Source: Escherichia coli (GTDB taxonomy: Bacteria > Pseudomonadota > Gammaproteobacteria > Enterobacterales > Enterobacteriaceae). From it: 64,000 nucleotides of DNA. The stretch is from assembly GCF_011045215.1 (NCBI RefSeq), contig NZ_CP049201.1. One strand, given 5' to 3'. A program made the position numbers and the translations under genes. This document shows, one piece after another, positions 26,791-45,362 of this stretch (positions within the stretch are counted from its first letter, which is position 1; each line of letters starts with the position of its first letter). Below the pieces are notes generated by a model. The model had not been told where the DNA came from and did no database searches. It saw nothing but the letters and a program-made list of their open reading frames with translations.

Positions 26791-27344
26791 TATATTAGGC
26801 TCATTATCAATGCAGCTAATCGCTTAATATATATTGGTATCATCATAACAACATTTTTCTTCCATCGGACAGGTAGAATTATATAACCGTCCCTTAAGAG
26901 AAAACAGGTTAGCATACAGCCTCCGGCTTCCCTACCTTAAAAGAGTTACAGTCGAAACTGAAATCTTCGGTTTTTCTTACATCCACAGAGAGGCGCATCA
27001 CCGTAAAAAGAACAATTATATAGAAGTACAGATCGCTATGCATGCAGACAAGCATCCCTGAGCTAATTATTACAGTCGGAAGAAGCATTATACCTGTCTG
27101 GGTATAACAGAATTGTGGGGTCAGCCCAACTATAGGGTAGGATCGTCTACCGTGGTGGGGTCAGTCTAATTGACGACTCGATGCAAGGCTCATTGAGTCG
27201 CATGAAAAACAAGGCGGGGCACAAAAAGTCGCATTTTTAAAGATAATAAAGGGAAATATGTATATTTATCAATGGATATATGGGTTTGTTTCTCCGCATT
27301 TAATACGCGGCGACGTCACTAATCAAACGCCCCTTGCATGACAG

Positions 27345-30300: not shown

Positions 30301-31556
30301 CGGAAGTTATCGGTCAAACGAGATGAGTCAAAAACAAAATCGTTGCCGTTTGTGTTAACGGAAAGCACGCCGTCTCCGGTTAATTTGTTCAGAAAACGCC
30401 AGCGCTGAGATGTCTCTATGGACAGCGTGCCGCCGTTAAGCAATACCGTGTTGGCGCCAATATTTTTTGGGTCCGTTATTAAGAGGCGGGCCGGAGAGTC
30501 GATAGAAAAATAGCCATGAAAATTCGAGTTATCACCGGCAAGCGCGGATAGGCCGTTCAACATATTGACGCGGCCCTTGCCACTCAAATTCGCCGACAGA
30601 GAAAATAAAGCGCTGGCATGATTAAATGTCAGAACGCCTTCCCTGAAGCCGAAAATAATCTCTTTGGTATTAATATTTCCGGCGGCGACAGCCTGCTCGC
30701 CGGCCCTTGCTCCAACGGCAAGCTCTCCTTTCCTGCCTCCTTTGGAAATGATAATTTCTCTGGCGCTTAGCAGGCCATTATCGGAGGCGATCGCTGTGGC
30801 TGTTCCATCCCAACCTACAATAAGCGTCGCGTCCGTCGAGATGACAGAGCCGGCCCCGGCTACCTGAAGCAGATTATCATAGCCGGCAGTTTCCAGCTGA
30901 TTCCCGACCTGAATATTCGCGTCAGCATGCGTCTTACCGCCATTAGTGGTTATCAGCGTGCCTGACCCATAGGTCCCGACTATAATTCTGCTTGCGGTTG
31001 CTAACTCACTTCCCGGACCATCAACATAGATACGTCCTGAGGTCGTAGATGACGGCGTTCTTCGGCTACCTATCCATATCCCGCTCCAGGTATTGTCCGA
31101 GCCGTGATGAAATAACTTTCCTCCCTGAGTAATATTTACCACGCCGCTTCCGTTTCCCATACCAACCTGTAAAGAACGATTTTTTTTGTCAATCGTAACT
31201 ATACTTCCTGGTCCGCTAATATTCAGTACCCCATAGCCATCAGGATTTTTTGAATCTGACTTACCGCCAACCAGTAAAGGATCGGTGTAAGTAGATTTGA
31301 TAATGTTCAGTCTGCCACCATCCGTTATATTGACGGTGCCTGTGGAGCCGTGTATCCCTATTTGAAAAAGCTCAGCTTGAACATAACCACCATTAGAAAT
31401 ATTAAGGGTGCCGTCAGTCTCATCACCAATAAAAATCCACGGTTCTTCCCATAATGAATCTATCTTTAACGCTTGGTTATCATTAATGGTTGCAGCTGGT
31501 GCACCGGTTGCACACATTGATGTGATAATAGCGATGAATAATTTACTTACTTTCAT
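27345..31556 (-). CDS. Type Va autotransporter (AIDA-I-like adhesin family, 1403 aa)
   Basis: N-terminal signal peptide, long Gly/Thr/Asn-rich beta-helical repeat passenger (repeated ...GG.L...G... units), C-terminal beta-barrel translocator ending ...VLGIRVTF with a terminal aromatic residue. Confidence 0.85.
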   Translation of the reverse strand: MKVSKLFIAIITSMCATGAPAATINDNQALKIDSLWEEPWIFIGDETDGTLNISNGGYVQAELFQIGIHGSTGTVNITDGGRLNIIKSTYTDPLLVGGKSDSKNPDGYGVLNISGPGSIVTIDKKNRSLQVGMGNGSGVVNITQGGKLFHHGSDNTWSGIWIGSRRTPSSTTSGRIYVDGPGSELATASRIIVGTYGSGTLITTNGGKTHADANIQVGNQLETAGYDNLLQVAGAGSVISTDATLIVGWDGTATAIASDNGLLSAREIIISKGGRKGELAVGARAGEQAVAAGNINTKEIIFGFREGVLTFNHASALFSLSANLSGKGRVNMLNGLSALAGDNSNFHGYFSIDSPARLLITDPKNIGANTVLLNGGTLSIETSQRWRFLNKLTGDGVLSVNTNGNDFVFDSSRLTDNFRGTVALQDTAFSLAETNAAALKDLSMKMGSGSLVKVGEGRQTLGGLTFEGGTLLVGEVNPGQKTSPATVHTTGQLDISGQGTVQVTRGTTFSNDRPMPDTLIPLLEQDESNILVRLVSSDGGVIGHGGNLTLTDQNAHVISDTAEADITQHGAVVANATYDYRLTRGDRDDGLYVNYALTNVDLMDKEADALILNANGKGGNAADLSATLTGDGDLAIDSQKGQTVTLSNLNNDYRGVTNVRSGNLAMLNDNVLGNTRELKLAGDTGFDMRGHSQTIATLTAENGSLTHLNGGQLTLTNGGKASGVLAGNGQLNVAGGTLSISGNNPELQATTAIMQGAKVVLDHTLGAGTGNIVAAGTLSVRYAAGRLYNSLSDAGQVELIDSDVVLAGTNRAFSGQFTVNTGSQMTALTADSLGAAEVHNSGSLVLNGDNNWRLDNTVYGSGRVIKLGTGTIALGDNAAWTGQTDIKQGGLLLGNNASPATLASSQVDIAQPGMLAGIGGVAGNINNAGTLQVGAHHEENHRFTVGGDLINSGLLATGFKGHQAGNQLVINGNYTGRKGYLTINTALGDDHSVTDELVVKGDTHGETTVSVVNAGGTGAQTLNGIEVIHVDGHSDGEFIQAGRIVAGAYDYSLGRGQGENSGNWYLTSGKTNPDPAPTPDRHDDLRPEAGSYIANLAAANTLFVTRLRDRQGETHYIDTLTGKEAITSLWLRNAGGHTHQQDSSGLLGMQANRNVTQLGGDIFEWSSDSADRFRLGLMAGYANQKTRAENQLNGYRADSRISGYSIGLYGTWLQTPEGAYVDTWAQYNWFDNTVSGRGVGVEAYESKGFTASLESGYTWKLARTGERNALYIQPQAQITWMGVRADDHQEANGTRVKGQGDGNVQTRIGVRLFGKGHSQLDEGMARTFQPFIEANWLHNSKEFGVSMNGDNINLAGTRDVGELKAGVEGQLSKYVSLWGTIGQQVGDKGYSDTAAVLGIRVTF

Positions 31557-31963
31557 AAAAAGCTCGGCGAATAATATGGATTGCCCCGTTGAGGAAAATT
31601 GACAGACGAGTCAGACCTGACAATGCTGCCGGTTCTGTGTGCTTTGAGCTGAAATCCTTATCTGGCAACGTATTAACAAGGTCTTTGTGCTAAGGAAAAG
31701 TTTATGGAAAAAGATCTGAAAAGTGCTTACTGCAAACTGAATAAATCTTACTTTTTTCTTACTTGTTTGACTTCTTTTTAGACTGAACGTAGGGTGCATT
31801 TGAATGAGAGGATAGTGCTGTTTGATTGATCAATAATAAAAATTCAGTACAGTGACGGAATATCTTATTTTATTATTGTCATACACTTCAGCGCGCCGGG
31901 CCGATCATTAGCAGAGAGAGATTATTCATAGAGATAACGAAGAAACCCTATCGTTAAAGTAGA

Positions 31964-32719
31964 GTGATAATGAATGCTACCAAATTTTTGTTAGACGGCA
32001 GAGTGCTATTTGATAGCGCCAGAATGACATTAAGTCGACAAGAGAAAATAGTCAGGCTCTCCGAGTCAGAGTGCCATTTACTGCTGGCTTTTTGGCTTGG
32101 ATTGTATAAAAAAGAAGAGATAATCAATTATGTCTGGAAAAATCGCAGCGGATGCGTTTCTGAATCGAGCTATTACAAACTTATCAATCAACTGCGAAAT
32201 AACTTCAATCGGGTGGGGCTTCACGCATCAGATATTGTTACACATCCCCGGGTGGGAATATCGTTATCGATAACGCTGACTTCCGCTGATGAAATGTGCG
32301 ACCTTCAGCAACAAAACGATGATGGGGCGCAGAAAATAAAATTCCGTGCCCTTTTGTCGCACCGGTTTATGGTTAAATGTAAAAACATGCGAGTACTTTG
32401 TTGCACCAGCGGTGTGGTATTGCTGATAGGTATTATCCTCATTTTTAGTTTTCCCAGCGATACAACATGGAATAAATCTGATAAGGAGTTCACCTCGCTT
32501 GGCGAGTTTGATGGTTATATTTTCTTTAAAATGAAGACGGATAAATTGACATTCAAGCAAGTCATCGCCGCATATACATCGATGACATTAAAACCTGACC
32601 CGCAAAATGGTCATTATCTTTATTACATCAGGGAGCCTGATATCAATCTTTTATTTCAGTGTTTAAATCCGATTGAAAACGTGGTGCCAAAATGTTTAAC
32701 CATAAAAGAACAGTACTGA
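31964..32719 (+). CDS. ToxR/CadC-like membrane-bound transcriptional regulator (N-terminal winged helix, one TM helix, periplasmic domain)
   Basis: N-terminal region FLLDGRVLFDSARMTL...ESECHLLLAFWL...EEIINYVWKNR..VSESSYYKLINQLRNNF...THPRVGISL follows the OmpR/ToxR winged-helix pattern; TM segment VLCCTSGVVLLIGIILIFSF; AT-rich gene. Confidence 0.7.
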   Translation: MIMNATKFLLDGRVLFDSARMTLSRQEKIVRLSESECHLLLAFWLGLYKKEEIINYVWKNRSGCVSESSYYKLINQLRNNFNRVGLHASDIVTHPRVGISLSITLTSADEMCDLQQQNDDGAQKIKFRALLSHRFMVKCKNMRVLCCTSGVVLLIGIILIFSFPSDTTWNKSDKEFTSLGEFDGYIFFKMKTDKLTFKQVIAAYTSMTLKPDPQNGHYLYYIREPDINLLFQCLNPIENVVPKCLTIKEQY

Positions 32720-33198
32720 TTACGATGACGGTCATTGCGCTGGTGCTGATCGTGATATTTGGCAGAAACGGGTGGAGTGTTCAGCGAAATGTTATGAATG
32801 TGGATAATTTTATTTGTACATCTAAATCAATAGTTTATATTGAACCTATGAAGATGAAACTGCGTGGTACGTTTGTGCTGGATCTTGAGTCAGACCGAAT
32901 CGCCATTCATTATGAAGTTGAACAGGCGGATCATAAGGAAAAACTTTTTTTCCAGGATGTTCATATCAGTAAATTACTCCGAACAGGTATCAGAACGTTC
33001 ACATTTAAAGTCAGCTCAGTAAATAAATTTTCTGCTGATTCAACCGGAGATATGTTTTCCTGGTTACGTCTCCTTCAACCCGGTACGGTGAATGAGTTGA
33101 ATATTGTCCAGATCGGTCAAAATGCATATCTGTATTCGTTGAACAGGCATTTATATAATATTTGTACGACAAGCACCAACGCGGTGAATACGCACTAA
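32692..33198 (+). CDS. ToxS/TcpH-like bitopic partner protein of the upstream regulator
   Basis: 168-aa ORF overlapping the upstream gene by 28 nt; N-terminal TM helix (VLITMTVIALVLIVIF) followed by a soluble, presumably periplasmic, domain. Confidence 0.55.
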   Translation: MFNHKRTVLITMTVIALVLIVIFGRNGWSVQRNVMNVDNFICTSKSIVYIEPMKMKLRGTFVLDLESDRIAIHYEVEQADHKEKLFFQDVHISKLLRTGIRTFTFKVSSVNKFSADSTGDMFSWLRLLQPGTVNELNIVQIGQNAYLYSLNRHLYNICTTSTNAVNTH

Positions 33199-33396
33199 TA
33201 GCTGTGTAATGGCCGGTCTATATGGGCATTGTGGCGGGTGTTGATAACGGAAGGGACTATTACATGTCCAATTTCGTCTGGAGCTGGCCTGTGTTAATAT
33301 GAACGCTGAAGGTTCCGTAAGGCTCTTAACTCAGTGCCTGGCAAGGCTGTACAACGGCAGAATCGGATACTCAATGAATAAATTGCAGAAGAAACC

Positions 33397-34137
33397 ATGA
33401 GCGAGCAAAAGTATCTTATCGACAATCGCGTGATATTTGATTCTGAGCGTATGTCATTGACTCACTCAGACAAAACGGTGAGCATTTCAGAATCCGAAAC
33501 GAATTTGCTGCTTGCTTTCTATAAGGGGTTATTCAAAAAGGATGATTTAATCGGCTGGGTCTGGGGGCGTAAGGGAGTCGTAGTTTCTGATGCCAGCTAT
33601 TATAAGCTCATCAATCAGTTACGTAATACTTTCGACAAAATAGGTCTACCGCCCTCATCTGTGGTGACGCGGCCCAAAGTCGGCGTTGAGCTGGTTTTAT
33701 CCATCACGCTCATTAAGCCTGCGACTCCCCGACAACCTGCTGCTGAACCGGTAGAACACTCAGCCGAATCCTTCAGCGAAACCCCGACAATACATGAACA
33801 CAATAAAACCGCTGTAGCAGGCCAGAGAGACTGGCTTTTTCTGGTATTGGCCGCGCTGTTGATGATCGCAGGATTTGGCGCCAGTCTGTGGGAGAGCCAT
33901 CCCTACTTTTCAGTGCCCGTTACCCATGACGGTTACTATTTTTATAAAGTAAGTAACGATAAAACGTCCTTCGAGGATGTGGCTGCGGCCTATGCAGAAT
34001 TGACAATTCCGGTGATTAAGCAGAATGGACGTCATATTTACTATATCAGAGTGCCGGATACCCATATTTTCGTCCAGTGCCTCAACCCACTCACCGTAGC
34101 GGAGCCAAAATGTATTACCCTAAAAGAACGTTATTAA
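33397..34137 (+). CDS. ToxR/CadC-like membrane-bound transcriptional regulator, paralogue of 31964..32719
   Basis: YLIDNRVIFDSERMSL...ESETNLLLAFYKGLFKKDDLIGWVWG...VSDASYYKLINQLRNTF...TRPKVGVEL is a clear paralogue of the first regulator; TM segment LFLVLAALLMIAGFGASLW. Confidence 0.7.
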   Translation: MSEQKYLIDNRVIFDSERMSLTHSDKTVSISESETNLLLAFYKGLFKKDDLIGWVWGRKGVVVSDASYYKLINQLRNTFDKIGLPPSSVVTRPKVGVELVLSITLIKPATPRQPAAEPVEHSAESFSETPTIHEHNKTAVAGQRDWLFLVLAALLMIAGFGASLWESHPYFSVPVTHDGYYFYKVSNDKTSFEDVAAAYAELTIPVIKQNGRHIYYIRVPDTHIFVQCLNPLTVAEPKCITLKERY

Positions 34138-34598
34138 GAATATTCACCGTGTTCTTTATTCTCGTCTCCGTGATGTTATGGGTACAGGTAATAAAGAAGC
34201 ACGCGGTCAGTCACCCCTCCGCGGGCAATTTTTTCTGTGCCACCAAAACGATAAGCAACATACAGGCGAAGGGGATAACCGTTGCGGGGGATATTGTCAT
34301 CGACTTCAAAACGCAACGTATTACGTTACAGCATGATGTGAAACAGCATAATAATGCGCATAGCCTGTTATATCGGGATGTTTACATGAAAAATCTGCGG
34401 CGCGTCACTGACGATCTTTTTACGTTTGAGATTGATTCTGTAAAGATATTTCCTGATGACAATGTCGGGAATTTTTTCTCCTATTTTCGCCTGCTCCATC
34501 CGGGGGGCCGCAACGAATTGCGAATTCAACGCATTGGCGAGAAAACCTATCTTTTTTCGCTTAATCGTCAGATTTATAACGTCTGTACAGCAAGTTGA
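34110..34598 (+). CDS. ToxS/TcpH-like bitopic partner protein, paralogue of 32692..33198
   Basis: Start placed at the internal Met (MYYPKRTLLRIFTVFFILVSVMLW) so that it overlaps the upstream gene by 28 nt exactly as in the first pair; C-terminal region paralogous (..YLFSLNRQIYNVCTAS versus ..YLYSLNRHLYNICTTS). Confidence 0.55.
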   Translation: MYYPKRTLLRIFTVFFILVSVMLWVQVIKKHAVSHPSAGNFFCATKTISNIQAKGITVAGDIVIDFKTQRITLQHDVKQHNNAHSLLYRDVYMKNLRRVTDDLFTFEIDSVKIFPDDNVGNFFSYFRLLHPGGRNELRIQRIGEKTYLFSLNRQIYNVCTAS

Positions 34599-34878
34599 AC
34601 TGCACAGGAATGCCCCGAGAGATTCTCTGAGGCCGTATGATAAGAGAGCGGTAAGCGGTAAGGTAACTGAAAGCTCATTACTTATTTAAATACATGGGTT
34701 TATATCAATCGTTCTGATTCTGTTCAACAGTGACAGAGTGAGATTATGATTTTTGTAAGATCTTCTTCCAGACTTTATCTGCCCTGATTAGCTATATTTT
34801 CGCCGCTGTAAACGGACATCAGAATACGTTTAAGTAGTCGTAATTAATGCTTTTTTCAATAAGATAAAGAGGGAGTAT

Positions 34879-35424
34879 TTGTCCATGTCTACGCGACTTC
34901 GTGGCGCTGCAATAATTTGTTTTTGTCTGCTAGCCTCATCTCAGAGTATGGCTAGTGGCACACATACGGTATCAATGGGGTATGCTCAAACACATCTGAG
35001 CGCATTAAAAAGCTCGAACAGCAAAGATCTTCATGGCTTTAATATAAAATATCGCTACGAGTTTGACGAACGCTGGGGCTTTATTGGTGCGTTAACGGCG
35101 ACTCGCCACGAAGTTGAGCATTATAGCTGGCAATCAGCAAAATTAAAAAAAGAGGGTACCGATACCATTGATTATAGTTCGGTAATGTTTGGCCCAACTT
35201 ATCGCTTTAATGATTACATCAGCCTGTATGGCAATGCAGGTATGGCGAGAATGAAAATGAAAAATACTCACTCAAACGAATCAACGGATGATTCGTTTGC
35301 ATACGGGGCCGGGGTAATATTTAACCCGTTAACCAACCTATCGCTTGATCTTTCCTGGGAAGCGTCAAAATTCTATTCTGTCGATGCCAATACGTTTGGC
35401 GTAAGCGTTGGCTATCGCTTTTAA
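34879..35424 (+). CDS. Ail/Lom/OmpX/PagC-family eight-stranded outer membrane beta-barrel protein
   Basis: Signal peptide, alternating amphipathic beta-strands, C-terminal ...FGVSVGYRF ending in Phe; family pattern GYAQT...FNIKYRYEF. Confidence 0.75.
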   Translation: MSMSTRLRGAAIICFCLLASSQSMASGTHTVSMGYAQTHLSALKSSNSKDLHGFNIKYRYEFDERWGFIGALTATRHEVEHYSWQSAKLKKEGTDTIDYSSVMFGPTYRFNDYISLYGNAGMARMKMKNTHSNESTDDSFAYGAGVIFNPLTNLSLDLSWEASKFYSVDANTFGVSVGYRF

Positions 35425-35485
35425 AAATTGTACTCCCAGGGAGTGGGGATAAGTAAAATCATATTAAAGAAATTAAGGTTTATCC

Positions 35486-35842
35486 ATGAAATATATATTA
35501 CCAGCTCTTTTTACGGTGTTTTTAACCGCCTGTAGCGCTAACTCATTACATTCGGGGGCGGAACGGGTTCGTGTGACTCATAACGAGCCTGGAAAAGAGT
35601 GTTCGTGGTTAGGCGACATCACTGGCAGCCAGGGCAACTTTTTTACCGGAGGTTGGACCTCGAACAGTAACCTCGAAACAGGCGCGCGGAATGATATGAA
35701 AAATCAGGCCTGGAAAATGGGTGGAAATGTTGTTGTGCTGCTAACGCAACGCGCAGGGCAAACAGGCAGTTCGTACAATGGCAGTGGTTCAAGTCAGCAA
35801 ACTAACGTGACGCTAAGCGGATCGGTCTACCGTTGCCCATAG
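35486..35842 (+). CDS. Small lipoprotein (118 aa)
   Basis: Signal peptide with lipobox (FLTACSAN), Gly/Ser-rich mature part. Confidence 0.6.
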   Translation: MKYILPALFTVFLTACSANSLHSGAERVRVTHNEPGKECSWLGDITGSQGNFFTGGWTSNSNLETGARNDMKNQAWKMGGNVVVLLTQRAGQTGSSYNGSGSSQQTNVTLSGSVYRCP

Positions 35843-36018
35843 TCTACTATATTTCATTGATGAACAGAGAGCAGATATCAACATTGACGATTGCGGTCTG
35901 CTCTGATTCATAAATGTCATAAAGGAATGATATTTCATTTTTTTGAAGGTTATTATGATAATTTCTTTTATGCCGGAAAATATATCTTATATTACTTGTG
36001 GGTATGTTGTTGTAAGGT

Positions 36019-36594
36019 ATGGATATACATTTTAAAGCACAATCTCCTGAGGCAGTAACGCTCGCCGTGTGGCCAGATAATAATCCTCTGTTCACTGACT
36101 CTCTTGCCCATTTGATCACCGAAATAAACGTAATAAATCGCGTAGAAGATTTTCTTTTCGTCAATTTTTGCATCGATAACTTTATATACTTTATTCATGA
36201 TGAGTGGCTTGAAAAGTTGAACAAGTCAGGCCTGAGGGGGGTGCTGGTTATTGACCGTTTTATGCATTCGCTGGCGAATTATTGGCGTGAAAAACAACAG
36301 GATATTATCTTGTTATCGGTTGGCGATCGGGACCTGACGTCATTTGTATCGGCCCTGAATAGCCTGTCTTATGGACAAAGCAGGGTGCTAGAAGATGTCA
36401 TGCCGATAACAGAAAAAGAAATTTTTGTGTTACGTAAACGCCTCTCCGGTATGTCCGTAAGAAATATCGCACTCACCCTTAATTGCTCGGTTAAAAGTAT
36501 TTATTATTGCCAGTATTCTTTATTAAAAAAATTGAGGCGTTCGTCACGAATAGGCGAGATTTATATCCATCACTCTCACGTGCATGAGACTTAG
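36019..36594 (+). CDS. LuxR/FixJ-type HTH transcriptional regulator (191 aa)
   Basis: C-terminal HTH EKEIFVLRKRLSGMSVRNIALTLNCSVKSIYYCQYSLLKKL fits the LuxR-type pattern; no receiver-domain motifs recognised in the N-terminal part. Confidence 0.6.
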   Translation: MDIHFKAQSPEAVTLAVWPDNNPLFTDSLAHLITEINVINRVEDFLFVNFCIDNFIYFIHDEWLEKLNKSGLRGVLVIDRFMHSLANYWREKQQDIILLSVGDRDLTSFVSALNSLSYGQSRVLEDVMPITEKEIFVLRKRLSGMSVRNIALTLNCSVKSIYYCQYSLLKKLRRSSRIGEIYIHHSHVHET

Positions 36595-36798
36595 TCGTTA
36601 GCCTGTTTTTTCTGGCGGAATGACGGCATAACCCGGAAGGGATATGCCGCCTGCTTCAGCCTATCACGCCATCAACGCAAAAACTCCCCAGCCAAAATAC
36701 TCCCGGCTGTAGGTAACATTACGCATCGGCGCCGCGCTTAACTCTGCCCGAACCTCAAGCGCGAAACCTGATCCTACCCACGTAATATGGACACAGGC

Positions 36799-37665
36799 CT
36801 AAGCGAGGTTCTGGTTTTCAAATTGTTCCGGACTGAGGCCGCCACACCAACTGTGCCGCCGCCACCGATTGTAATCACATTCGATATAATTAAACACCGT
36901 TGCCCGCATTATTTCCCGGCTGATAAAGTGTTCTCCATGGATACATTCCACTTTCAGCGAATGAAAGAAGCTTTCCACGCAGGCATTATCGTAGCAGCAA
37001 CCTTTTGCGCTCATACTTCCACGCAGATTATGCCGCTTCAGTTGCGCCTGATAATCTGCTGAACAGTACTGGCCTCCACGGTCCGTGTGAACGATAACGT
37101 TCCGGGGCCTCTTACGCCGCCACAGCGCCATCTGCAGGGCATCGCAGGCCAGTTGCGCCGTCATGCGTGGCGACATTGACCAGCCAATAACGGCACGTGA
37201 CCACAGGTCAATGACCACTGCCAGATACAGCCAGCCTTCATCTGTACGTAAGTACGTGATGTCTCCTGCCCACTTCTGGTTCGGGCCACTGGCGTAAAAA
37301 TCCTGCTCCAACAGATTTTCTGACACAGGCAGGCCGTGTGCGCGGTAGCTGACCGGGCTGAACTTCCGGGAGGCCTTTGCCCTCAGTCCCTGACGGCGCA
37401 GGCTTGCCGCCACGGTTTTTACGTTAAAGGGGTAACCCTGAGCACGCAGTTCATCCGTCAGGCGTGGGGCACCGTAACGCTGTTTTGACCGGGTAAAAGC
37501 CGCGAGGACAACGCTGTCGCAGTGTTGGCGGAACTGCTGACGCGTGCTTATCCTTGTCCGCCGCTGACACCACGTATACCAGCCGCTGCGGGCCACCCGG
37601 AGCACGCGGCACATTGCTTTGATGCTGAACTCAGCCTGATGTTTTTCAATAAAGACATACTTCAT
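36799..37665 (-). CDS. insF: IS3 transposase OrfB (DDE integrase-type catalytic domain)
   Basis: 288-aa ORF with DDE-domain residues (...WAGDITYL..., ...[10 protein letters not shown]...) inside the IS3 element. Confidence 0.9.
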
Positions 37666-37970
37666 TTCAGGCGCTTCGCGAAGTATGTCGCGGCCTTTTG
37701 GAGGATAGCCAGCTCTTCATCCCGTTCTGCCAGCTGGCGTTTGAGACGTGCAATCTCGGTAGACATCTCCAGTTCACGTTCAGAAGACGTCTGCTGATTT
37801 TGCTGTTTACTGCGCCAGTTGTAGAGCTGTGATTCATACAGGCTGAGTTCACGGGCTGCGGCAGTAACACCGATGCGTTCAGCAAGCTTCAGGGCTTCAC
37901 TGCGAAATTCAGGCGAATGCTGTTTACGGGGTTTTTTACTGGTTGATACTGTTTTTGTCATGTGAGTCAC
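37662..37970 (-). CDS. insE: IS3 transposase OrfA (HTH protein)
   Basis: 102-aa [55 protein letters not shown]... inside the IS3 element. Confidence 0.9.
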
Positions 37971-38042
37971 CTCTGACTGAGAGTTTACTCACTTAGCCGC
38001 GTGTCCACTATTGCTGGGTAAGATCACATCGCTATTAATATT

Positions 38043-38150
38043 TTGACGAATGATAAGGTATTCAAGGCAGGGTTAAGACGTAAGATGCGAAAAGCAGCCA
38101 TGGACAGAAACTATCTCGCGTCAGTACTTGCGGGGAACTGGCTTTCGTAA
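38043..38150 (+). pseudogene. 3'-terminal fragment of an ISAs1-family (H-repeat-associated) transposase gene
   Basis: Translates to [35 protein letters not shown], matching the conserved C-terminus of ISAs1/H-repeat transposases; truncated right next to the IS3 end. Confidence 0.75.
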
Positions 38151-38337
38151 TCTTGCCCTGATCCCGATAGCGGTCTAATTATTTATAGCACAAGTGGTTT
38201 TTCAATGAATGGGGAAGATCAAGTGAAAAATAATATTCATTAAAAATTGAATAAAATTGAGAGAAGTATATCTCTTTTTAAAAAAGATCCTATTACTTGA
38301 TAGAAGTAATGGTAATTTATGATATGTTCTTATTACA

Positions 38338-38589
38338 TTGAAGAGTATAACTCTTTCCAAAACAGAATTAACATCATCCGTTCTTAAGCAATATCGATTG
38401 GAACTTCTGAAGTATCATGTTGAACTTGTTGAGTTATTTAATAAATATTATATTGTGAATTATAATCCTCAAAGACCCTATCGTATGCATATGTTTCCTC
38501 CTGTGGATGCGGTAGATGGACTTGTGTTTGGTGAAGTGGACCTGAGTAGAATTAGAGATAATATGAATCAGATCTCAAGGAGAATATAA
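38338..38589 (+). CDS. Hypothetical small protein (83 aa), AT-rich, upstream of the PAAR gene
   Basis: ORF only; no recognised motif. Confidence 0.3.
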   Translation: MKSITLSKTELTSSVLKQYRLELLKYHVELVELFNKYYIVNYNPQRPYRMHMFPPVDAVDGLVFGEVDLSRIRDNMNQISRRI

Positions 38590-38906
38590 GAATTGGAAAG
38601 GAGCTTTCCTTTCAGGCTGCTTTAACTTCGGTAAAATACGTTCTTGAAGCACCAGATAATAAAGTCGGTAATATTGCCACTATTGAGTTTTTCATCAAGG
38701 TTAATTACGAGAATAACCCTTCTGATAAAGCTGAAGTTGAGAAGGTGCTTAATGAATCAGAACTGAAGAATGCTCTTAAGTCCAGAATTCTTGATGATAC
38801 TGTCAGGCAACACAGATGATTAAATCATCTGGATGTATTTAATGCATAAACATTTCTGAATGATACATAAAAATTGTATTTAATGTTTCCCTCCTGGAGA
38901 ATCTCT

Positions 38907-39191
38907 ATGCCCACAGCAGCCAGACTCAGCGATAAAGGCACCCAGCATGACGGTTATTATGAGACCACCATTATTGCAGGCTCCTCCACCGTCTTTATTG
39001 ATGGTATGCCCGCCGCCCGTCAGGGCGATCCGCTGACACCGCATTCCAAACCTGACCATCCCCCTCACCCCCGTAAAATCGCAGGCGGCTCTGCCACTGT
39101 CTTTATTGACGGTAAACCTGCCGCCAGAACCGGCGATGCCATTGACTGTGGCGGCGTGGTTATCGGTGGCGGCACGGTAAATATAGGCTGA
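38907..39191 (+). CDS. PAAR-domain protein (T6SS spike tip)
   Basis: 94-aa protein with PAAR repeats (DGMPAARQGDP, DGKPAARTGDAIDCGG); start placed at the internal Met preceded by GGAGA; immediately upstream of vgrG. Confidence 0.85.
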   Translation: MPTAARLSDKGTQHDGYYETTIIAGSSTVFIDGMPAARQGDPLTPHSKPDHPPHPRKIAGGSATVFIDGKPAARTGDAIDCGGVVIGGGTVNIG

Positions 39192-39211
39192 TTAATTATC
39201 AGGGAGGCTGT

Positions 39212-41611
39212 ATGCCCTCAGAAGGATTACGTTTCACGCTGTCGGTGGACGGTATCGTGGAGATGGCGACGGCGGTGGTGAGCTTCCGTCTGTACCAGCA
39301 CCACTGCACGCCGTTCATCCTGGATGTGGATATCGCCAGCGGGCTGTCTGACCTGACGGCGGAGGATTTTCTGGAGAAGAGCGCGGTGCTGACGGTCTGG
39401 CAGGGTGATATCCCGCAGCGTTACGTCAGCGGTATCGTGACGGAGGTGCAACTGGGGGAGAACAACGACTGGCAGATGCGTTATTCCCTGAGCATCAGCC
39501 CGCCGCTGTGGCGGGCAGGGTTACGGCAGAACTTCCGTATCTTCCAGCAGCAGGACATCCAGACGATATCAGCACAGCTTCTGAGAGAGAACGGAGTGAC
39601 GGCATGGATGCCGCTGTTTTATGAAGACCATCCGGCGCGGGAGTTCTGTGTGCAGTACGGGGAAAGCGACCTGGCGTTTCTGGCGCGGCTGTGGGCGGAG
39701 GAGGGGATTTTCTTCTTTGAGCGGTTTGCGGCGGACAGTCCGGAGCAGAAGCTGACGCTGTGCGACGATGTGGCGGGGCTGTCACAGGCGGGAGAGCTTC
39801 CGTTTAACCCGGACACATCGGCAGGAGCGGAGACGGAGTGTCTCAGTACGTTCCGTTATGAGGCGCATGTCCGCCCGTCGTCGGTGCAGAGTCAGGATTA
39901 CACGTTTAAGGTGCCGGACTGGCCGGGGATGTATGAGCAGCAGGGTGAGAACCTGAACGGACAGCTGGCGCAGTACGAGATATTTGATTATCCGGGAAGG
40001 TTCAAGGATGAGCAGCACGGCAAGGATTTCACGCTGTACCAGATGGACAGCCTGCGCAGTGATGCGGAAAAGGCCACAGGGCAGAGTAATTCACCGAAGC
40101 TGTGGCCGGGAACGCGGTTTACGCTGACGGGGCATCCGCAGAAGATGCTGAACCGTGAATGGCAGGTGGTACAGAGCATACTGTCAGGAAGCCAGCCGCA
40201 GGCGCTGCACGGCAGCCAGGGGAGGGGAACCACGCTGGGAAATCAGTTAGAGGTGATACCGGCAGACCGGACGTGGCGTCCACGGCTGCAAAGCAAACCG
40301 AAGGTGGACGGGCCGCAGAGTGCCATTGTGACCGGGCCGAAGGGTGAGGAGATATTCTGCGACGAACATGGCCGGGTACGGGTGAAGTTCCACTGGGACC
40401 GTTATCACGGGATGACGGAGGCGAGTTCATGCTGGGTGCGGGTATCGCAGGCGTGGGCGGGGCCGGGGTTCGGTAACCTGGCGATACCGCGGGTGGGCCA
40501 GGAGGTGATTGTTGACTTCCTGAACGGCGACCCGGACCAGCCCATCGTCACGGGACGGACCTACCATGAAGATAACCGCTCCCCGGGCGACCTGCCGGGA
40601 ACGAAGACGCAGATGACGATACGGTCGAAGACCTATAAAGAAAGCGGATTTAACGAGTTGCGGTTTGAAGACGCCACCAGTAATGAGCAGGTGTATATCC
40701 ACGCGCAGAAGAACATGGATACGGAGGTGCTCAACGACCGGACAACGGATGTGAAGCATGACCATACGGAGACCATTGGTAACGACCAGAAGATAACGGT
40801 GGTGAAGGGGCAGACGGTTGAGGTCGGGACCAGAAAAGAAGGAGGCCACGACCAGAGTATCACGGTGGCGAACGACCGGAGCATAACGGTACGTAACGAC
40901 CAGACGCTGAAGGTGACAAATGACCGGACGGTGAGCGTGAGTCACGATGACGGTCTGTACGTCAGAAATGACCGTAGGGTGACGGTGAAAGGGAAGCAGG
41001 AGCATAAGACGACGGGTAACCACATCAGCCTGGTGGAGGGGAAGCACAGCCTGGAGGTGAAGGGGGACCTGGCGGAGAAGGTGAGTGGCGCGCTGGGGAT
41101 AGAAGTGGACGGGGATATCGTGCTGGAGAGCAGCAGCCGGATAAGCCTGAAGGTGGGTGGCTCGTTTATCGTCATTCAGCCGGGCGGAGTGGATATTGCC
41201 GGGCCGAAGATAAACCTGAACGGTGGGGGCAGTGCGGGGACACCGGTGGGGACGATGCAGCCGGCGGTGCTGGAGGCTCCGGAGGATGAGAGCAGTGATG
41301 ATGGCAGTGATGACTCCGGAGAGGATAGTGGCAATCCCGCAGGGAGTGACGGAGGAGGTGATGGCGGTGACGATGAAGATGATCCTGAAAAATATACCCT
41401 CCAGTTCCATTTTACGGACGATGACGGGATACCGTATTCAGAGACGCAGTATATTGCCTTTTTTGAGGATGGCACACAGACGCGTGGTGAAACAGACAGA
41501 GAGGGATATACAGAAATATTTTATACAGATACAGCACAGGAAATTAAAGTCCAATTGTTATTTTCGGATGCTTTTTATATTGAGCCGGAGGGGCATTATG
41601 GCAGGGAATAA
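39212..41611 (+). CDS. vgrG: Type VI secretion spike protein VgrG (799 aa) with an acidic linker and a small C-terminal extension domain
   Basis: Gp27-like N-terminal region, gp5-like OB-fold and beta-helix (WAGPGFGNLAIPRVGQEVIVDFLNGDPDQPIVTGRTYHEDNR; repeated ...NDRT/ITV... units), then an Asp/Glu/Gly/Ser-rich linker and a roughly 70-aa C-terminal domain. Confidence 0.92.
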   Translation: MPSEGLRFTLSVDGIVEMATAVVSFRLYQHHCTPFILDVDIASGLSDLTAEDFLEKSAVLTVWQGDIPQRYVSGIVTEVQLGENNDWQMRYSLSISPPLWRAGLRQNFRIFQQQDIQTISAQLLRENGVTAWMPLFYEDHPAREFCVQYGESDLAFLARLWAEEGIFFFERFAADSPEQKLTLCDDVAGLSQAGELPFNPDTSAGAETECLSTFRYEAHVRPSSVQSQDYTFKVPDWPGMYEQQGENLNGQLAQYEIFDYPGRFKDEQHGKDFTLYQMDSLRSDAEKATGQSNSPKLWPGTRFTLTGHPQKMLNREWQVVQSILSGSQPQALHGSQGRGTTLGNQLEVIPADRTWRPRLQSKPKVDGPQSAIVTGPKGEEIFCDEHGRVRVKFHWDRYHGMTEASSCWVRVSQAWAGPGFGNLAIPRVGQEVIVDFLNGDPDQPIVTGRTYHEDNRSPGDLPGTKTQMTIRSKTYKESGFNELRFEDATSNEQVYIHAQKNMDTEVLNDRTTDVKHDHTETIGNDQKITVVKGQTVEVGTRKEGGHDQSITVANDRSITVRNDQTLKVTNDRTVSVSHDDGLYVRNDRRVTVKGKQEHKTTGNHISLVEGKHSLEVKGDLAEKVSGALGIEVDGDIVLESSSRISLKVGGSFIVIQPGGVDIAGPKINLNGGGSAGTPVGTMQPAVLEAPEDESSDDGSDDSGEDSGNPAGSDGGGDGGDDEDDPEKYTLQFHFTDDDGIPYSETQYIAFFEDGTQTRGETDREGYTEIFYTDTAQEIKVQLLFSDAFYIEPEGHYGRE

Positions 41612-42401
41612 TAATACTAGTGGGACTTCACAACCCGAGTCGCAAGTATGTGTAGTACCGCAAAAAATTACAAATAAATTTAAAATAATGATGAGTAAGG
41701 CTTGTAAAGCACAGAAAATGGTTTTATTGAAAAGAGCAGATGATATTATGTCATGGGAGGGGGAACAACAACGAGATTTTATTAAAGTTTTTGGCCTTAA
41801 AGGCGAGGACATTATAAAAATCAGAAAGGTTGGGGAAGATACTGGGAAACGAATGCAAGCGAGACTATTCATAATGGATGGCATCAGACAAATAATGACG
41901 ATTGCAAATGGTTTGACGATCGAAAGCTATAAAGATTATACGAACTGCAATGAATTTGCTGCTTTTATTAGTCCACATCTTGATCCTCCTTACATTGTAA
42001 ATATCGGAGCGCATTTTGAATACAGACATGGTATAAAACAGTCGGTTACAGGTAGAGACTCTCATGTAAGTACACTTTGCCATGAAATGTCCCATATATT
42101 TTGGTATTGGGGTGACAATCAAAAAGGTGGTATGTGGACTCAGGATTATACGGGTATTAATAAGTTCGCAACAAGTAATAAGGATGAAGTTAGCTATGAG
42201 AAACATGTTTCAGTGGCTAATGATCTGGTTACATTGCGTAAAGATCAGTTATTTGAGAATGCATATAATGTTGAAAGATATTTTTATATAAAATTAAATG
42301 ATGAAGATATTGAAGCTCAAGATGAGAATATGTTAGCAAAAAAAGTAGAGGATAAAATAAAAGAGATAGAAAAATGTTTTGATGAGTTGATGGGGAAATA
42401 A
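41598..42401 (+). CDS. Putative T6SS effector: uncharacterised protein with an HExxH zinc-metallopeptidase-like motif (267 aa)
   Basis: Start ATG lies within the last 14 nt of vgrG (translational coupling); contains CHEMSHIFWYWGDNQKGGMWTQDYTG (HExxH followed by conserved Asp residues); abrupt drop in GC content relative to vgrG; followed by a secreted-protein gene. Confidence 0.6.
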   Translation: MAGNNNTSGTSQPESQVCVVPQKITNKFKIMMSKACKAQKMVLLKRADDIMSWEGEQQRDFIKVFGLKGEDIIKIRKVGEDTGKRMQARLFIMDGIRQIMTIANGLTIESYKDYTNCNEFAAFISPHLDPPYIVNIGAHFEYRHGIKQSVTGRDSHVSTLCHEMSHIFWYWGDNQKGGMWTQDYTGINKFATSNKDEVSYEKHVSVANDLVTLRKDQLFENAYNVERYFYIKLNDEDIEAQDENMLAKKVEDKIKEIEKCFDELMGK

Positions 42402-42402
42402 G

Positions 42403-43242
42403 ATGAAGAGGTTGGCTTTCTATAATCTAAATTATGTTGTACTGATGGTTTTTTTTCTTTGTTTTTTGCCATTATCTATTGCAATTGCAATAGATAATGA
42501 GAATCTTTTTGTAAAAAAATACAGATTCGGTTTTGAACGAAGAAATGACAATGGGAAACCAATTATTTATCTTAGCCATAATTTAGCGCCAGAGGAAAAT
42601 ATAAGTAATGAATTAACAAATGATGTTGTTGTTAAATTGGTGGTTAAGCCACATGCTGAAAATATTTTAGCTACTATAACTTTTTATAACAGTAGTACTA
42701 AATCGTATTTTCTCCCCAGAATATATTATCCAAAGAACTTCCAAAAAGGAAATGGAGATGTATTTGATGCTTTGTGTGATGACGAATTCTTGATTACATC
42801 AGGAAATATTAGCTTAGACTATCTAGGAGGCTTTTGTCCCTTTGAGCTTGATTTGAATTTGAGCCGATGGGTGGAAATTACGGCAGGTAAAAAAATATCT
42901 TTTGATGTAAAATTGAATGATATGCATTCATTTCTCCCCAGTTTAAATAATTATCATATAAAAACATTAAACTACAAACTTGTTAGGAGAAAATGGTTTG
43001 TATTAAAATCAATTAATGAAACATTCCTCTCTATTTTGATGAAAAGATACTCATGTAATGAATATGATTTTAGAGCTATATCATTTAGTGGAGAGGGATG
43101 TGATAATTATGAATTTGATAAAAATACGTTTTTTTTTGTTAATCAAATATTAGATAAAGATGATGAGCAACATTCTGTTCATATTAGGTCTAATGAATTT
43201 TCCATCAATATCGATGGAAGCTTGGTAAAGCAACCTTATTGA
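42403..43242 (+). CDS. Putative cognate immunity protein (279 aa, N-terminal signal peptide or membrane anchor)
   Basis: Begins 1 nt after the effector stop; hydrophobic N-terminus (VVLMVFFLCFLPLSIAIAI) suggests periplasmic localisation; AT-rich like the effector gene. Confidence 0.5.
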   Translation: MKRLAFYNLNYVVLMVFFLCFLPLSIAIAIDNENLFVKKYRFGFERRNDNGKPIIYLSHNLAPEENISNELTNDVVVKLVVKPHAENILATITFYNSSTKSYFLPRIYYPKNFQKGNGDVFDALCDDEFLITSGNISLDYLGGFCPFELDLNLSRWVEITAGKKISFDVKLNDMHSFLPSLNNYHIKTLNYKLVRRKWFVLKSINETFLSILMKRYSCNEYDFRAISFSGEGCDNYEFDKNTFFFVNQILDKDDEQHSVHIRSNEFSINIDGSLVKQPY

Positions 43243-43304
43243 TTAAAATGTATCGCAGGTTTTATTTTCTGTAATGCTGGTGCATGTGCGTAAATATTTC
43301 TTAA

Positions 43305-43730
43305 GAGCCGGAAACACCTCTTCCGCCTTTATCGACGATAAACCTACCGCCAGAACCGGTGATGCCATTGACTGCGGTGGCGTGGTTAAAGGTGGAGGGC
43401 GATGTGGTGCTGGAGAGCAGCAGCCGGATAAGCCTGAAGGTGGGCGGCTCGTTTGTGGTCATCCATTCAGGGGGCGTGGACATCGTCGGGCCGAAAATCA
43501 ATCTCAATAGCGGCGGTAGTCCGGGAACGCCGGTGCCGACGCTGCAACCGGCGGTTCTGAAAGCGCTGGCAGATGATAAAAGTTTAGCGGCTGAGCAAAA
43601 TGATAGTAATGCATCGTCCGATCAGAATGATAACAACGATGAGGGTGAGGAAGCGCCAGAAAAATCGGTGTGTAAGGAGTGCCTGAAAAGGGCGCAAGAA
43701 GCCGCCGCCGTTTTTGCGCCTCGTGGATAA
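43305..43730 (+). pseudogene. PAAR-vgrG deletion-fusion remnant (3' end of a PAAR gene joined to the 3' end of a second vgrG)
   Basis: 43309..43392 closely matches the PAAR 3' end at 39092..39175 (...FIDDKPTARTGDAIDCGGVV...); from about 43393 the sequence matches vgrG at about 41110..41245 (VLESSSRISLKVGGSF.V.....GGVDI.GPKINLN.GG) and then continues into a different C-terminal tail. Confidence 0.8.
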
Positions 43731-43736
43731 GGGAGA

Positions 43737-44506
43737 ATGACAATGATAACAGTATCGCCACACGCTACCGATCAAGACAAATATATTATCTGGCTGAAGC
43801 AAGCTGAATCATTCTGTTCTGCCGCTGGTTTGGATTACATAGATGTGCTTGTTGACCAGGCTGGAACCGACCAACCTTTGCAAAATGATATGCTTCATCT
43901 GTCGCCAGCCATTCACTGGTATGCCCTGTTTGAAGGAACGCCTGAAGCTGAGACGATGGAGTATTCCCCTGTAGTGTTACGCCTGTACTTTGCGCTCAGT
44001 AGCCATCGCAAATTTCTGGCACAACTGATGGCGTCATTTGCTGATACGCCGCGTCTTACTTTGTTGATATCCCCTCTTACATTCGACCTGCTGGGCGGCA
44101 TCTTCAGGTATTGTCACAGGTTCAGTGGGAAGAACAGACCGGATTGCTGCGTTACTATGATAATCGGGTGTTCCCTTTACTGTTCACACATGTTTTGACT
44201 AACGAGCAGCAGGCGACATTTACTGATATTGCGTTGTTCTGGAGCTGGTTAGACCGTGATGGTGAGATTAACTGGAAATCAGGAAGTTTTTCACCAGAAC
44301 GCAGGCTTACTGACAACCCGGAGATGAATCGGGTGGATGATGTACAGGTGGGATTGATGGGCTGTATCTGCGACGCTGAAGTCCTGATGAAGGAGAAAGC
44401 AGTCAGTGAACTCAGTCAGGAAAGCTATTTTGCCCACTGTCTTGATATTGCTTTCAGGGCCAATGACGCGAAATATTTCGGAGCTTTGCGGGACTTCGAA
44501 GGATAA
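43737..44506 (+). pseudogene. T6SS adaptor/chaperone-like gene (DUF4123-type, Tap/Tec family), split across two overlapping reading frames
   Basis: Two overlapping ORFs (43737..44198 and 44111..44506) together span about 256 codons, in the adaptor position between a vgrG 3' end and a DUF2235 effector gene; family assignment is by position and recalled sequence character. Confidence 0.5.
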
Positions 44507-44819
44507 TATTGTGGTGATGTACGGGGAGATTTATCTGTTTAAAAGTCCGTAGCTGTTAATATCAAGAGATAATCGTGAAATAAACGGAAAATCAAGCTCG
44601 ACATGTAATGGTAGTATCCATCATGTTGCATTTGTGTTCGATCGTAATGTCAGTTCACTTGGCTGCAATATATTTTGCGTAATATCATCAATGCTCTGTC
44701 GATATTCCAATGTGTGACAATCGAAAGATATGCATTTTATTTGCTTCTATGTCAAAACTTTATTGTCGTAGAAACAATACCCATCAATTAAAATCTCTCA
44801 AAGTAAAAGAACCAGCAAC

Positions 44820-45362
44820 ATGTCCAGCAAAATAAGAAATGGAATGAATATAACAAAAGTAGTTAAAGGCTGTCTGGTATTAATTTTGATGGTGATTTCT
44901 GGTTGCTCAGCAGATAATTACGACGATTATACTGCAGGTGATCTCCGGGCAATAAATCATATTAAAGGTATCAGTATTAATTGGTTCACCGTAAATGGTT
45001 ATCGGGTCCATGGTTTGGGCGGTGGATATTGCTGCATAATGTTACCAAAGAAGTGGCATTCTGGATTAAAAGCCCGGATCGAGTGGGAAGTAGACCCGAC
45101 CCCCCTTGAACCTATTGCAATGAAAAAAGAAGGTTTTGGCTATGAAGAAGATGCTTATGCTAAACATGCTGCAAATTATCAAAAATATAAAGTAATTGTT
45201 GACATCCCGGAATACGGCGCTGAACGTTGTGGCCTGACCGTTCATTTTCTGCCGTGTAATCAGATTAAAGTGACAACCGTCTGCGAGGGCTATGGCACAC
45301 CGAATTATCCTATCAAAGAACCCCGCGAGATGAAGGAACCTGCAACATGTCCAGCAAAATAA
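44820..45362 (+). CDS. Lipoprotein (180 aa), candidate Tle1-associated immunity or accessory protein (DUF3304-like)
   Basis: Signal peptide with lipobox (LILMVISGCSADN); directly upstream of and overlapping the Tle1-like gene. Confidence 0.55.
   Translation: MSSKIRNGMNITKVVKGCLVLILMVISGCSADNYDDYTAGDLRAINHIKGISINWFTVNGYRVHGLGGGYCCIMLPKKWHSGLKARIEWEVDPTPLEPIAMKKEGFGYEEDAYAKHAANYQKYKVIVDIPEYGAERCGLTVHFLPCNQIKVTTVCEGYGTPNYPIKEPREMKEPATCPAK

Follow-up and report, generated by a model that had tools for sequence, protein, structure and literature searches.

An IS3 copy located within the 64-kb stretch of Escherichia coli DNA analysed here (the window) is a deletion junction in the variable region between aspV and yafV. 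At this place an ordinary IS-anchored deletion has probably taken out a secretion-system gene cluster together with the distal half of a genomic island, leaving the 3' stump of a methyltransferase gene on the left of the element and the 3' stump of an ISAs1-family transposase gene on its right, two fragments that were never neighbours. The junction may well have been produced by recombination between two direct IS3 copies, a reading to which we give an even chance, and the main rival is a deletion adjacent to one copy. IS3-anchored deletion without a target-site duplication is already known and common, and it raises no new mechanistic question.

The element is a complete IS3 of 1258 bp (36769..38026, transposase genes on the minus strand). 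It starts at 36769 with TGATCCTACCCACG... and ends at 38026 with ...GCTGGGTAAGATCA. Its terminal inverted repeats, of the TG...CA type, are imperfect, with about 28 of the first 39 positions matching between the ends TGATCCTACCC... and TGATCTTACCC... Both reading frames are open: orfA (37662..37970, minus strand, 102 aa) encodes an HTH_Tnp_1 domain (5.7e-10), and orfB (36799..37665, minus strand, 288 aa) encodes HTH_21 and the rve and rve_2 integrase core (rve 5e-28). The two overlap at 37662-37665, and the window-right end of the element, on the 38026 side, is the one upstream of orfA. The size, the TG...CA ends and the overlapping orfA (HTH) and orfB (DDE/rve) on one strand are those of IS3 of E. 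coli (IS3 family, IS3 group). The copy matches the annotated IS3 of strain FDAARGOS_944 at every base (100% identity), and shows 0-3 differences from seven IS3 copies of unrelated E. coli genomes. PGAP labels its counterpart in E. coli PapRG-06-5 'IS3-like element IS3 family transposase, programmed frameshift'.

In contrast to simple IS3 insertions, the window copy has no 3-bp target duplication, and its two flanks have never been contiguous. The triplet beside the window-left end is ACC (36766..36768) and the one beside the window-right end is CAT (38027..38029), with 0 of 3 bases matching in register; CAT occurs once at the same site in intact ISAs1 copies. Direct repeats of 3-5 bp were also sought with offsets of +/-3 bp at both ends, and none was found. 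The original prediction of a complete element with both inverted repeats, flanked by ACC and CAT instead of a duplication, was therefore borne out, a hidden duplication included in the search. It is the only IS3 copy in the 64-kb window, where no second copy with matching half-sites occurs. Among the seven unrelated copies sampled, four are surrounded by a perfect 3-bp repeat and three have no duplication, the latter including nfrB'-IS3-envY and pgaB'-IS3-ycdU, and the missing 3-bp duplication reflects the insertion event and is no feature of the IS3 element itself. As an internal control for simple insertion, an IS21-family element (IstA/IstB by Pfam; 48276..50229, minus strand) retains an intact 5-bp target duplication, GCCAC, and its site is empty in contigs L021, L022, L027 and L028.

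On the right side, homology to ISAs1 DNA begins at the first base after IS3 (38027) and extends to about 38160-38167, which corresponds to the last ~134-141 bp of the element. This 3'-terminal remnant of an ISAs1-family (ISEc1-like) element (38027..38160, plus strand) is 94-98% identical to ISEc1/ISAs1 transposase 3' ends and matches such ends in thousands of E. coli genomes, the match always starting at 38027. The transposase frame is open over 38028-38150 (40 codons, ending in ...GNWLS and a stop) and is conserved with the ET350 copy, so that ~124 nt are left of a 1137-nt gene. A complete ISAs1 (~1.3 kb, a transposase of ~378 aa and both ends) was looked for in vain at this place, where the 40 codons and the 3' end are what is left. 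The truncated transposase that had been predicted next to IS3 is thus real, but its extent has to be corrected: it was said to consist of 35 codons starting 17 bp beyond the element, whereas the homology starts at 38027 and covers 40 codons. The 35-codon ORF (38043-38150) does exist, but its TTG start is only a product of ORF calling, and an exact-protein look-up with its 35 residues returned no record.

Relatives with an intact ISAs1 had been proposed as a check, and they were found. ET350 and contigs L029 and L030 have a full-length copy ahead of the same orf83-PAAR-VgrG module; the two contigs are 99.7% identical to the window over 38025-39921 and encode an intact 378-aa ISAs1 transposase upstream. 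At the break point, the intact sequence of ET350 reads ...GGTACAT/CGCTATT. Compared with the intact elements of ET350, L029/L030 and many other contigs, the window keeps the last ~134-141 bp, and the rest has been removed at the IS3 junction. ISAs1-family elements (ISEc1/H-repeat) lie between VgrG/Rhs cassettes in E. coli, and the remnant, with its 94-98% likeness to ISEc1 3' ends, occupies the same place upstream of orf83-PAAR-VgrG.

The left flank is part of a CP4-like island whose left boundary is the tRNA-Asp gene aspV (15726..15802, plus strand, found by ARAGORN). The retained half (15803..36768) is 99.5-100% identical to PapRG-06-5, from which its annotation was taken; it encodes DUF4942, CbtA/YeeU, antirestriction and EAL proteins, an autotransporter, wHTH pairs, Ail/Lom, DUF4156 and an EcpR-like LuxR regulator, and no integrase gene was found between 15803 and 36768. 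It ends against IS3 in what is left of a yjhP-like gene for a class I SAM-dependent methyltransferase (36664..36768, minus strand), a 3' stump with the last 33-34 of ~248 codons, which PGAP describes in PapRG-06-5 as 'SAM-dependent methyltransferase, missing N-terminus'. Although Pfam gave no match for the 34-aa stump, tblastn against plasmid records identified it as yjhP-like, aligning it with 64-82% identity (best E 2e-10) to the C-terminal ends of class I SAM methyltransferases 248 aa long. An intact methyltransferase gene beside the LuxR gene was sought by sensitive blastn in 5,426 complete E. coli genomes and was not found; the left flank occurs there in PapRG-06-5 only. The exact LuxR protein is present in PapRG-06-5 and in Logan contigs of two other sequencing runs only, and those contigs break at IS3. 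Left-flank matches longer by 22 bp in LHM10-1 and CP52E were discarded as an unrelated IS3 in a CP4-44-like region.

The order in which the two junctions formed can be read from PapRG-06-5. The 15.8-38.0 kb part of the window is common to both genomes at ~99.95% with an identical left junction, and divergence sets in exactly at the IS3 end; in PapRG-06-5 the same IS3 has a different right flank, also without a duplication (ACC on one side, ACT on the other). Since the left junction is common to the two genomes and the right flank is different in PapRG-06-5, IS3 was in place before the right-hand junction of the window formed. The island of PapRG-06-5 runs ~19 kb further, up to an integrase, and IS3 is separated from yafV by ~62 kb, compared with 14 kb in the window, by a fimbrial operon, a second IS3, an integrase, a complete T6SS and Rhs. 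At the same IS3 copy, this sister island took another course. It also bears on the idea that IS3 inserted without duplication into a break or deletion that already existed, or while one was forming, which is the IS-at-rearrangement-centre mechanism proposed by Ngan et al. Such an event has a precedent in the IS5 copies without duplication at the centre of a one-step deletion in E. coli C (PMC11708052), but we regard it as very unlikely at this locus, where the left junction is older than the event, being common to PapRG-06-5 with its other right flank.

Measured against aspV and yafV, each flank of IS3 points the way it does in PapRG-06-5, 32F4 and GPT24-02, and because both have kept this native orientation the event was a deletion and not an inversion. 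An IS3-mediated inversion would have flipped one of the two flanks and was rejected on these grounds. Together with a simple insertion whose 3-bp duplication has mutated, it makes up the least credible of the explanations considered, with hardly any probability: the missing duplication is the one point in favour of either, and in the case of a decayed duplication the flanks come from two unrelated genes, each reduced to a stump, that were never contiguous. What we observe is a single IS without duplication whose non-contiguous flanks are collinear with the backbone, as for a deletion by recombination, and the same IS with the same left junction in a relative that does not have this deletion, PapRG-06-5, as for an adjacent deletion. 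The two stumps, PapRG-06-5 and the native orientation support the predicted IS3-associated loss of most of an ISAs1 and of neighbouring island genes; the same junction without IS3, named beforehand as a finding that would speak against it, was sought and did not turn up.

The region to the right of the remnant is informative as to what else may have been lost. It starts with the module that normally lies downstream of a full ISAs1 (38338..41611, plus strand), made up of orf83 (38338-38589), PAAR (38907-39191) and a VgrG of 799 aa (39212-41611), for which an exact-protein look-up returned no record. It is followed on the plus strand (41598..47440) by genes for an M35 peptidase, a hypothetical protein, a VgrG fragment, DUF4123 (Tla1-like) and DUF3304 (Tli1-like) proteins and a Tle1-like phospholipase, identified by Pfam and by the relatives 32F4 and GPT24-02. 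The variable region ends at yafV (52005..52781, minus strand), the first core gene to the right. On the right-hand core, the assemblies GCA_910665095.1 and GCA_910665105.1 match the window at 99.3-100% identity, the former at 100%. No T6SS core genes were found within the 64-kb window, where the effector genes of 41598..47440 thus stand without a core cluster. The aspV-yafV T6SS locus of 32F4, GPT24-02 and 23CRST031, with its VgrG-M35-Tla1-Tli1-Tle1 effector region, runs collinear with the window at 96-99% identity in the part from the C-terminal portion of VgrG to Tle1, in the ISAs1 remnants and in yafV. Those three strains, however, carry tssB-tssM and hcp immediately upstream, a place taken in the window by IS3 and an unrelated island; in 32F4 and GPT24-02 the T6SS core cluster with hcp directly precedes the VgrG-M35-Tle1-yafV order at this locus. 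We also considered the chimeric VgrG as a sign of a larger rearrangement, and dismissed this since GPT24-02 has the same PAAR-VgrG(799)-M35 order at the locus.

If two direct IS3 copies recombined, an island with IS3 already in its methyltransferase gene would first have integrated at aspV. A second IS3 in the same orientation would have been present in, or have inserted into, the ISAs1 further right, with CAT as its target triplet, and homologous recombination between the two copies would then have excised the intervening DNA and left one hybrid IS3 between ACC and CAT. Concerning the first step, the density of mismatches to PapRG-06-5 falls exactly at aspV, from ~1 per 40 bp to ~1 per 0.5-2.5 kb, and this switch in identity argues for site-specific integration of the whole island with its truncation coming later. 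The lost DNA would comprise ~645 bp from the 5' end of the methyltransferase gene, ~1.15 kb of ISAs1 and the part of the island nearest the integrase. From the gene content of the other strains, upstream VgrG cassettes and a whole T6SS core cluster, hcp included, were probably lost as well, which would bring the loss to tens of kb overall. IS copies that recombine with each other are a recognised source of missing target-site duplications (PMC11708052), and IS3 insertions in ISAs1 elements, in the same orientation, exist at other positions in other strains. In PapRG-06-5, moreover, a direct IS3 pair brackets a segment with matching half-sites, ACT...ACT, which points to IS3 x IS3 recombination in the history of the island.

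Polymorphisms within IS3 are consistent with a hybrid element. Three of the 1258 bases (IS positions 127, 748 and 1118) distinguish the window copy from the one at the PapRG-06-5 junction, compared with 0.68 differences expected from the adjacent 14.7 kb of island (Poisson P ~0.03). At each of the three the window copy has the allele found in 7/7 of the unrelated IS3 copies, the island-type alleles being T127/T748. All three differences lie beyond IS position 126, although with three sites the pattern could also have come from mutation within the PapRG lineage or from gene conversion between IS3 copies. Common alleles beyond IS position ~126 would be as expected if that part of the element came from a resident IS3, and the IS3 polymorphisms mildly favour recombination over adjacent deletion.

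Adjacent deletion supposes no second IS3: from the copy in the methyltransferase gene, the orfA-proximal end would have reached into ISAs1 on the same chromosome, by transposing within the molecule or by some similar aberrant event, and the DNA in between would have been deleted. Members of the IS3 family transpose by copy-out/paste-in through a circle, a route that by itself leaves the neighbouring DNA in place, and this general property weighs against such an event. The end product predicted is nevertheless the same, namely one conserved flank, one new flank and no duplication. That PapRG-06-5 has the left junction unchanged but another right flank, again without a duplication (ACC and ACT), fits a fixed IS with a variable neighbouring deletion, a pattern described for progressive adjacent deletions that counts against recombination. 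In the Lenski long-term lines, 14 of 14 deletions without duplication next to IS150, which belongs to the IS3 family, were adjacent deletions at a copy that was already there, and they often grew with time (PMC11708052). On the other hand, adjacent deletion should have left the island's original IS3, yet three differences are seen instead of the 0.68 expected, with the common allele at each, and it leaves the ACT...ACT half-site match around the IS3 pair of PapRG-06-5 unexplained. We hold adjacent deletion to be possible, with something over a quarter of the probability.

A further possibility is that recombination took place between strains. PapRG-like donor DNA consisting of aspV, the island and the methyltransferase stump with its IS3 would have replaced the segment from aspV to ISAs1 of a recipient, through crossovers at or near aspV and in an IS3 borne by the recipient's ISAs1. 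This model is a mechanistic variant of IS3 x IS3 homologous recombination, operating between genomes and not within one. It accommodates the ~99.95% tract that starts at aspV and stops at or within IS3, with core DNA on either side differing by 1-3%, and the alleles of the window IS3, which from position 127 onward are the common ones and not donor-type; both strains, besides, come from the same primate study, and contigs of SRR11014969 are 100% identical to the window. For a left crossover exactly at a tRNA gene, however, site-specific island integration is the simpler explanation, and the model needs an IS3 at the CAT site of ISAs1 in the recipient, a state seen in no genome searched. We therefore consider exchange between strains doubtful. 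Were it to hold, IS3 would have served as a portable patch of homology between co-resident E. coli in the wild primate gut, swapping the aspV island for the recipient's T6SS core cluster in one step, an improbable scenario in which IS copies set the boundaries of island exchange between strains, and not only those of deletions within a genome.

Returning to recombination between two direct copies, its predicted intermediate, with two IS3 copies or with IS3 at the CAT site of ISAs1 bearing its own duplication, was found neither in the 5,426 complete E. coli genomes nor in JGI metagenome contigs, and the same holds for the reciprocal junction, in which the 5' part of ISAs1 ending in CAT is joined to IS3. 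The right junction of the window was likewise absent from complete E. coli genomes, where the best joined matches have IS3 and ISAs1 56-1000 bp apart at other positions, and from JGI metagenome contigs. In its intact IS, its non-contiguous flanks and the presence of one junction in a relative, the case is like the IS copies without duplication that arose by recombination or adjacent deletion in the Lenski lines (Ngan et al. 2024, PMC11708052). It differs from them in coming from a natural isolate with no time series, and in the DNA that would have been lost, half of an integrative island and a T6SS cluster.

The junction adds a natural case to the IS3-anchored deletions already known, and it matters when T6SS content or island mobility is scored from this genome. 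Deprived of its integrase end, the aspV island would no longer be able to excise and would be locked in place. The PAAR-VgrG-M35-Tle1 effector genes, in turn, would have been orphaned at the aspV-yafV locus, without the T6SS core cluster that related strains have there.

The element at 36769-38026 is a complete IS3 of 1258 bp with imperfect terminal inverted repeats (left terminus TGATCCTACCCACG, right terminus GCTGGGTAAGATCA), and its minus strand holds two overlapping ORFs, one of 102 aa with an HTH_Tnp_1 domain and one of 288 aa with HTH_21, rve and rve_2 domains. It is the sole IS3 copy within the 64-kb window. Not a single base distinguishes it from an IS3 of strain FDAARGOS_944, and six other copies from unrelated E. 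coli differ from it by 1-3 bases. Just outside the element lie ACC on the left and CAT on the right, and re-examination within 3 bp of each end revealed no direct repeat of 3-5 bp at any offset. The original prediction of a complete IS3 with both inverted repeats, unequal flanks and no target-site duplication is thus confirmed by the ends, the ORF and domain content and the offset scan.

The lack of a duplication is not unusual, this phenomenon being already known and common. We fetched seven unrelated IS3 copies as a baseline: four showed a perfect 3-bp duplication inside one interrupted gene (pdeF, ynfN, yegI and a TonB-dependent receptor gene), and the other three had none and joined non-contiguous genes (nfrB'-IS3-envY, pgaB'-IS3-ycdU and a CP4-44-like region). 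The window itself offers a model of simple insertion, with its duplication kept, in contrast to the IS3: a 1954-bp IS21-family element (IstA/IstB) at 48276-50229, with ends TGTCAACG.../...CGTGACA, lies inside another ISAs1 remnant, is bordered by an intact 5-bp duplication GCCAC, and has an empty site in four relatives (L021, L022, L027, L028).

On the right of IS3, DNA homology to ISEc1/ISAs1 begins at 38027, the first base past the element, and extends to ~38160-38167, the ISAs1 transposase frame being open from 38028 over 40 codons. IS3 therefore abuts the ISAs1 remnant directly. It had been predicted that the transposase end starts 17 bp beyond IS3 and spans 35 codons; the remnant is real, as is a 35-codon ORF at 38043-38150, which is a mechanical ORF call only, but the spacer is absent. 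What remains of the transposase gene, 1137 nt when complete, is about 124 nt. In intact ISAs1, the break point reads ...GGATACGGTACAT|CGCTATTAAT and CAT is present once, which is what either an IS3 target triplet or the endpoint of a deletion would give. Related sequences do carry ISAs1 before the same orf83-PAAR-VgrG module (38338-41611): E. coli ET350, which matches window 38026-40903 at 96.5%, has a full-length but frameshifted element, and metagenome contigs L029 and L030, 99.7% identical over 38025-39921, have an intact 378-aa transposase gene upstream. Many assemblies contain the exact PAAR protein, and most of the places shown have an ISAs1-sized stretch before it, with ISAs1 transposase fragments called in several of them and another VgrG cassette further ahead. 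The stretch from Tle1 to yafV holds three more degraded ISAs1 fragments (47579-48275, 50230-50483 and 51755-51951), which are kept in E. coli strains 32F4 and GPT24-02; these and the stump at 38027-38160 together show ISAs1 elements interspersed among the VgrG cassettes.

On the left, the minus strand of the 105 bp preceding IS3 codes for the last 33-34 residues of a class I SAM-dependent methyltransferase, labelled by PGAP as a methyltransferase "missing N-terminus" in PapRG-06-5, a complete E. coli genome with the same left junction. By tblastn, this stump is 64-82% identical to the C-termini of 248-aa methyltransferases (best E 2e-10). One matched gene lies beside the sgc genes of an E. coli record and another beside a YjhX toxin gene on an Enterobacter plasmid, and these neighbours mark the stump as yjhP-like. 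Since both neighbours of IS3 are stumps of unrelated genes, the flanks were never contiguous, which excludes a simple insertion with a decayed duplication. Inversion is excluded as well, both flanks being oriented to aspV and yafV as in the comparison genomes.

The window covers a known variable region, with metN and an rrn operon, dnaQ, tRNA-Asp (aspV, 15726-15802), the island and then yafV-ivy-fadE at the right. A search of 5,426 complete E. coli genomes matched the island DNA to the left of IS3 only in PapRG-06-5, from a Gambian baboon. Divergence between the two genomes is 1-2% in the core to the left of aspV, 1.4-8% to the right of yafV (2-kb windows) and only ~0.05% across the island; this near-identity runs through the methyltransferase stump and IS3 and ends at the IS3 end. 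The window strain very probably comes from the same Gambian primate study, because SRR11014969 contigs match both its island side and its Tle1 side at 100.000%. Up to five sequence types were found within one baboon in that study (PMC7643976). An island (15726-38026) ~99.95% alike between strains whose core genes are 1-3% apart, together with the shared study, suggests a recent transfer of the aspV island between co-circulating strains. Mismatch density switches precisely at the tRNA gene, so the simplest account has the entire island arriving by site-specific integration and being truncated afterwards. An inter-strain replacement with IS3 as the crossover site would also yield such a junction, but the boundary at aspV makes it improbable.

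Several smaller features were observed in this comparison. The window is without 3.76 kb of the PapRG-06-5 island (L005 13526-17282) at 22047/22048, a junction with no IS; among the proteins encoded there are a GTPase-family protein, a WYL-domain protein and a YfjS/YafY lipoprotein. The cargo at 26000-36600 comprises two tandem pairs of a winged-helix regulator and a small hypothetical gene, an Ail/Lom outer-membrane protein, a DUF4156 lipoprotein, an EcpR_N/GerE regulator, a 1403-aa autotransporter and a CSS-motif EAL protein, a set not seen together in any other complete E. coli genome. At 60001-62000, identity to PapRG-06-5 falls to ~92% near the flhA'/lafU boundary (a lateral-flagella remnant), and short repeated matches of ~133 bp occur near 60778-61034.

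IS3 and yafV are ~62 kb apart in PapRG-06-5 vs 14 kb in the window. Right of IS3, PapRG-06-5 carries a fimbrial operon, an IS3-family transposase fragment, IS630, a second complete IS3 in the same orientation and a truncated phosphodiesterase gene, then yfjI-like genes, an integrase, a complete T6SS cluster, VgrG, Rhs genes, ISEc1 and yafV. The integrase end of the island is missing from the window, whose 14 kb hold the ISAs1 stump, orf83, PAAR, VgrG (799 aa), an M35 peptidase, a VgrG fragment, DUF4123, DUF3304, a Tle1-like phospholipase, more ISAs1 remnants, the IS21-family element, two small genes and yafV. Strains 32F4 and GPT24-02 share the VgrG-to-yafV stretch at 96-99% identity with tssB-tssM and hcp directly upstream, GPT24-02 having one further VgrG cassette there too. 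Draft GCA_910665095.1 is 100.000% identical over 9.2 kb of the right-hand core, is without the IS21-family insertion, and its contig ends inside VgrG. No T6SS core gene was found within the 64-kb window, despite PAAR-to-Tle1 effector genes at 38907-47440.

This locus is a deletion junction with IS3 as its anchor. The predicted IS3-mediated loss of most of ISAs1 and of neighbouring island genes is supported by the two gene stumps, the collinear flanks and the PapRG-06-5 comparison. As to its size and content, we infer that the lost DNA would comprise ~645 bp from the 5' side of the methyltransferase gene, as much as ~19 kb of the island, 1.15 kb of ISAs1 and, most probably, a T6SS core cluster together with hcp and VgrG cassettes lying upstream. 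Locally, the outcome is an island fragment locked in and, at the aspV-yafV locus, T6SS effector genes unaccompanied by a core cluster, which matters for strain annotation and raises no new question.

Such a product is known to arise in two ways, by recombination of two direct IS3 copies or by a deletion adjacent to an IS already in place (PMC11708052). We put recombination between two IS3 copies at about an even chance. Between the window IS3 and its PapRG-06-5 counterpart at this junction (IS3-A) there are three differences, at IS positions 127, 748 and 1118, against 0.68 predicted from the neighbouring 14.7 kb of island (Poisson P ~0.03). The window alleles are those of all seven unrelated copies, and T127 and T748 are common to both PapRG-06-5 copies. 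These alleles fit a crossover no further than ~126 bp into the element, which would have joined an island-borne IS3 to a resident IS3 in ISAs1; IS3 inserted in ISAs1 in the same orientation is found in other strains at other positions. Adjacent deletion beside the resident IS3 is possible though rather unlikely: the same copy has a fixed left junction and different right junctions in the two strains, neither of which shows a duplication, and a fixed IS with varying adjacent deletions was reported for IS150, of the IS3 family, in long-term evolution lines (PMC11708052). All other routes taken together are very improbable.

A further point in favour of recombination is that an IS3 x IS3 event seems to have left its footprint in PapRG-06-5, whose two direct copies (L004 37031-38288 and 47547-48804; L001 10501-11758) both lack a duplication. 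Their flanks are ACC|ACT for IS3-A and ACT|CTT for IS3-B, so that the 9.3-kb fimbrial segment between them is bracketed ACT...ACT. It looks as if a circle with one IS3 (duplication ACT) integrated into another IS3 by recombination. IS3-B truncates the phosphodiesterase gene.
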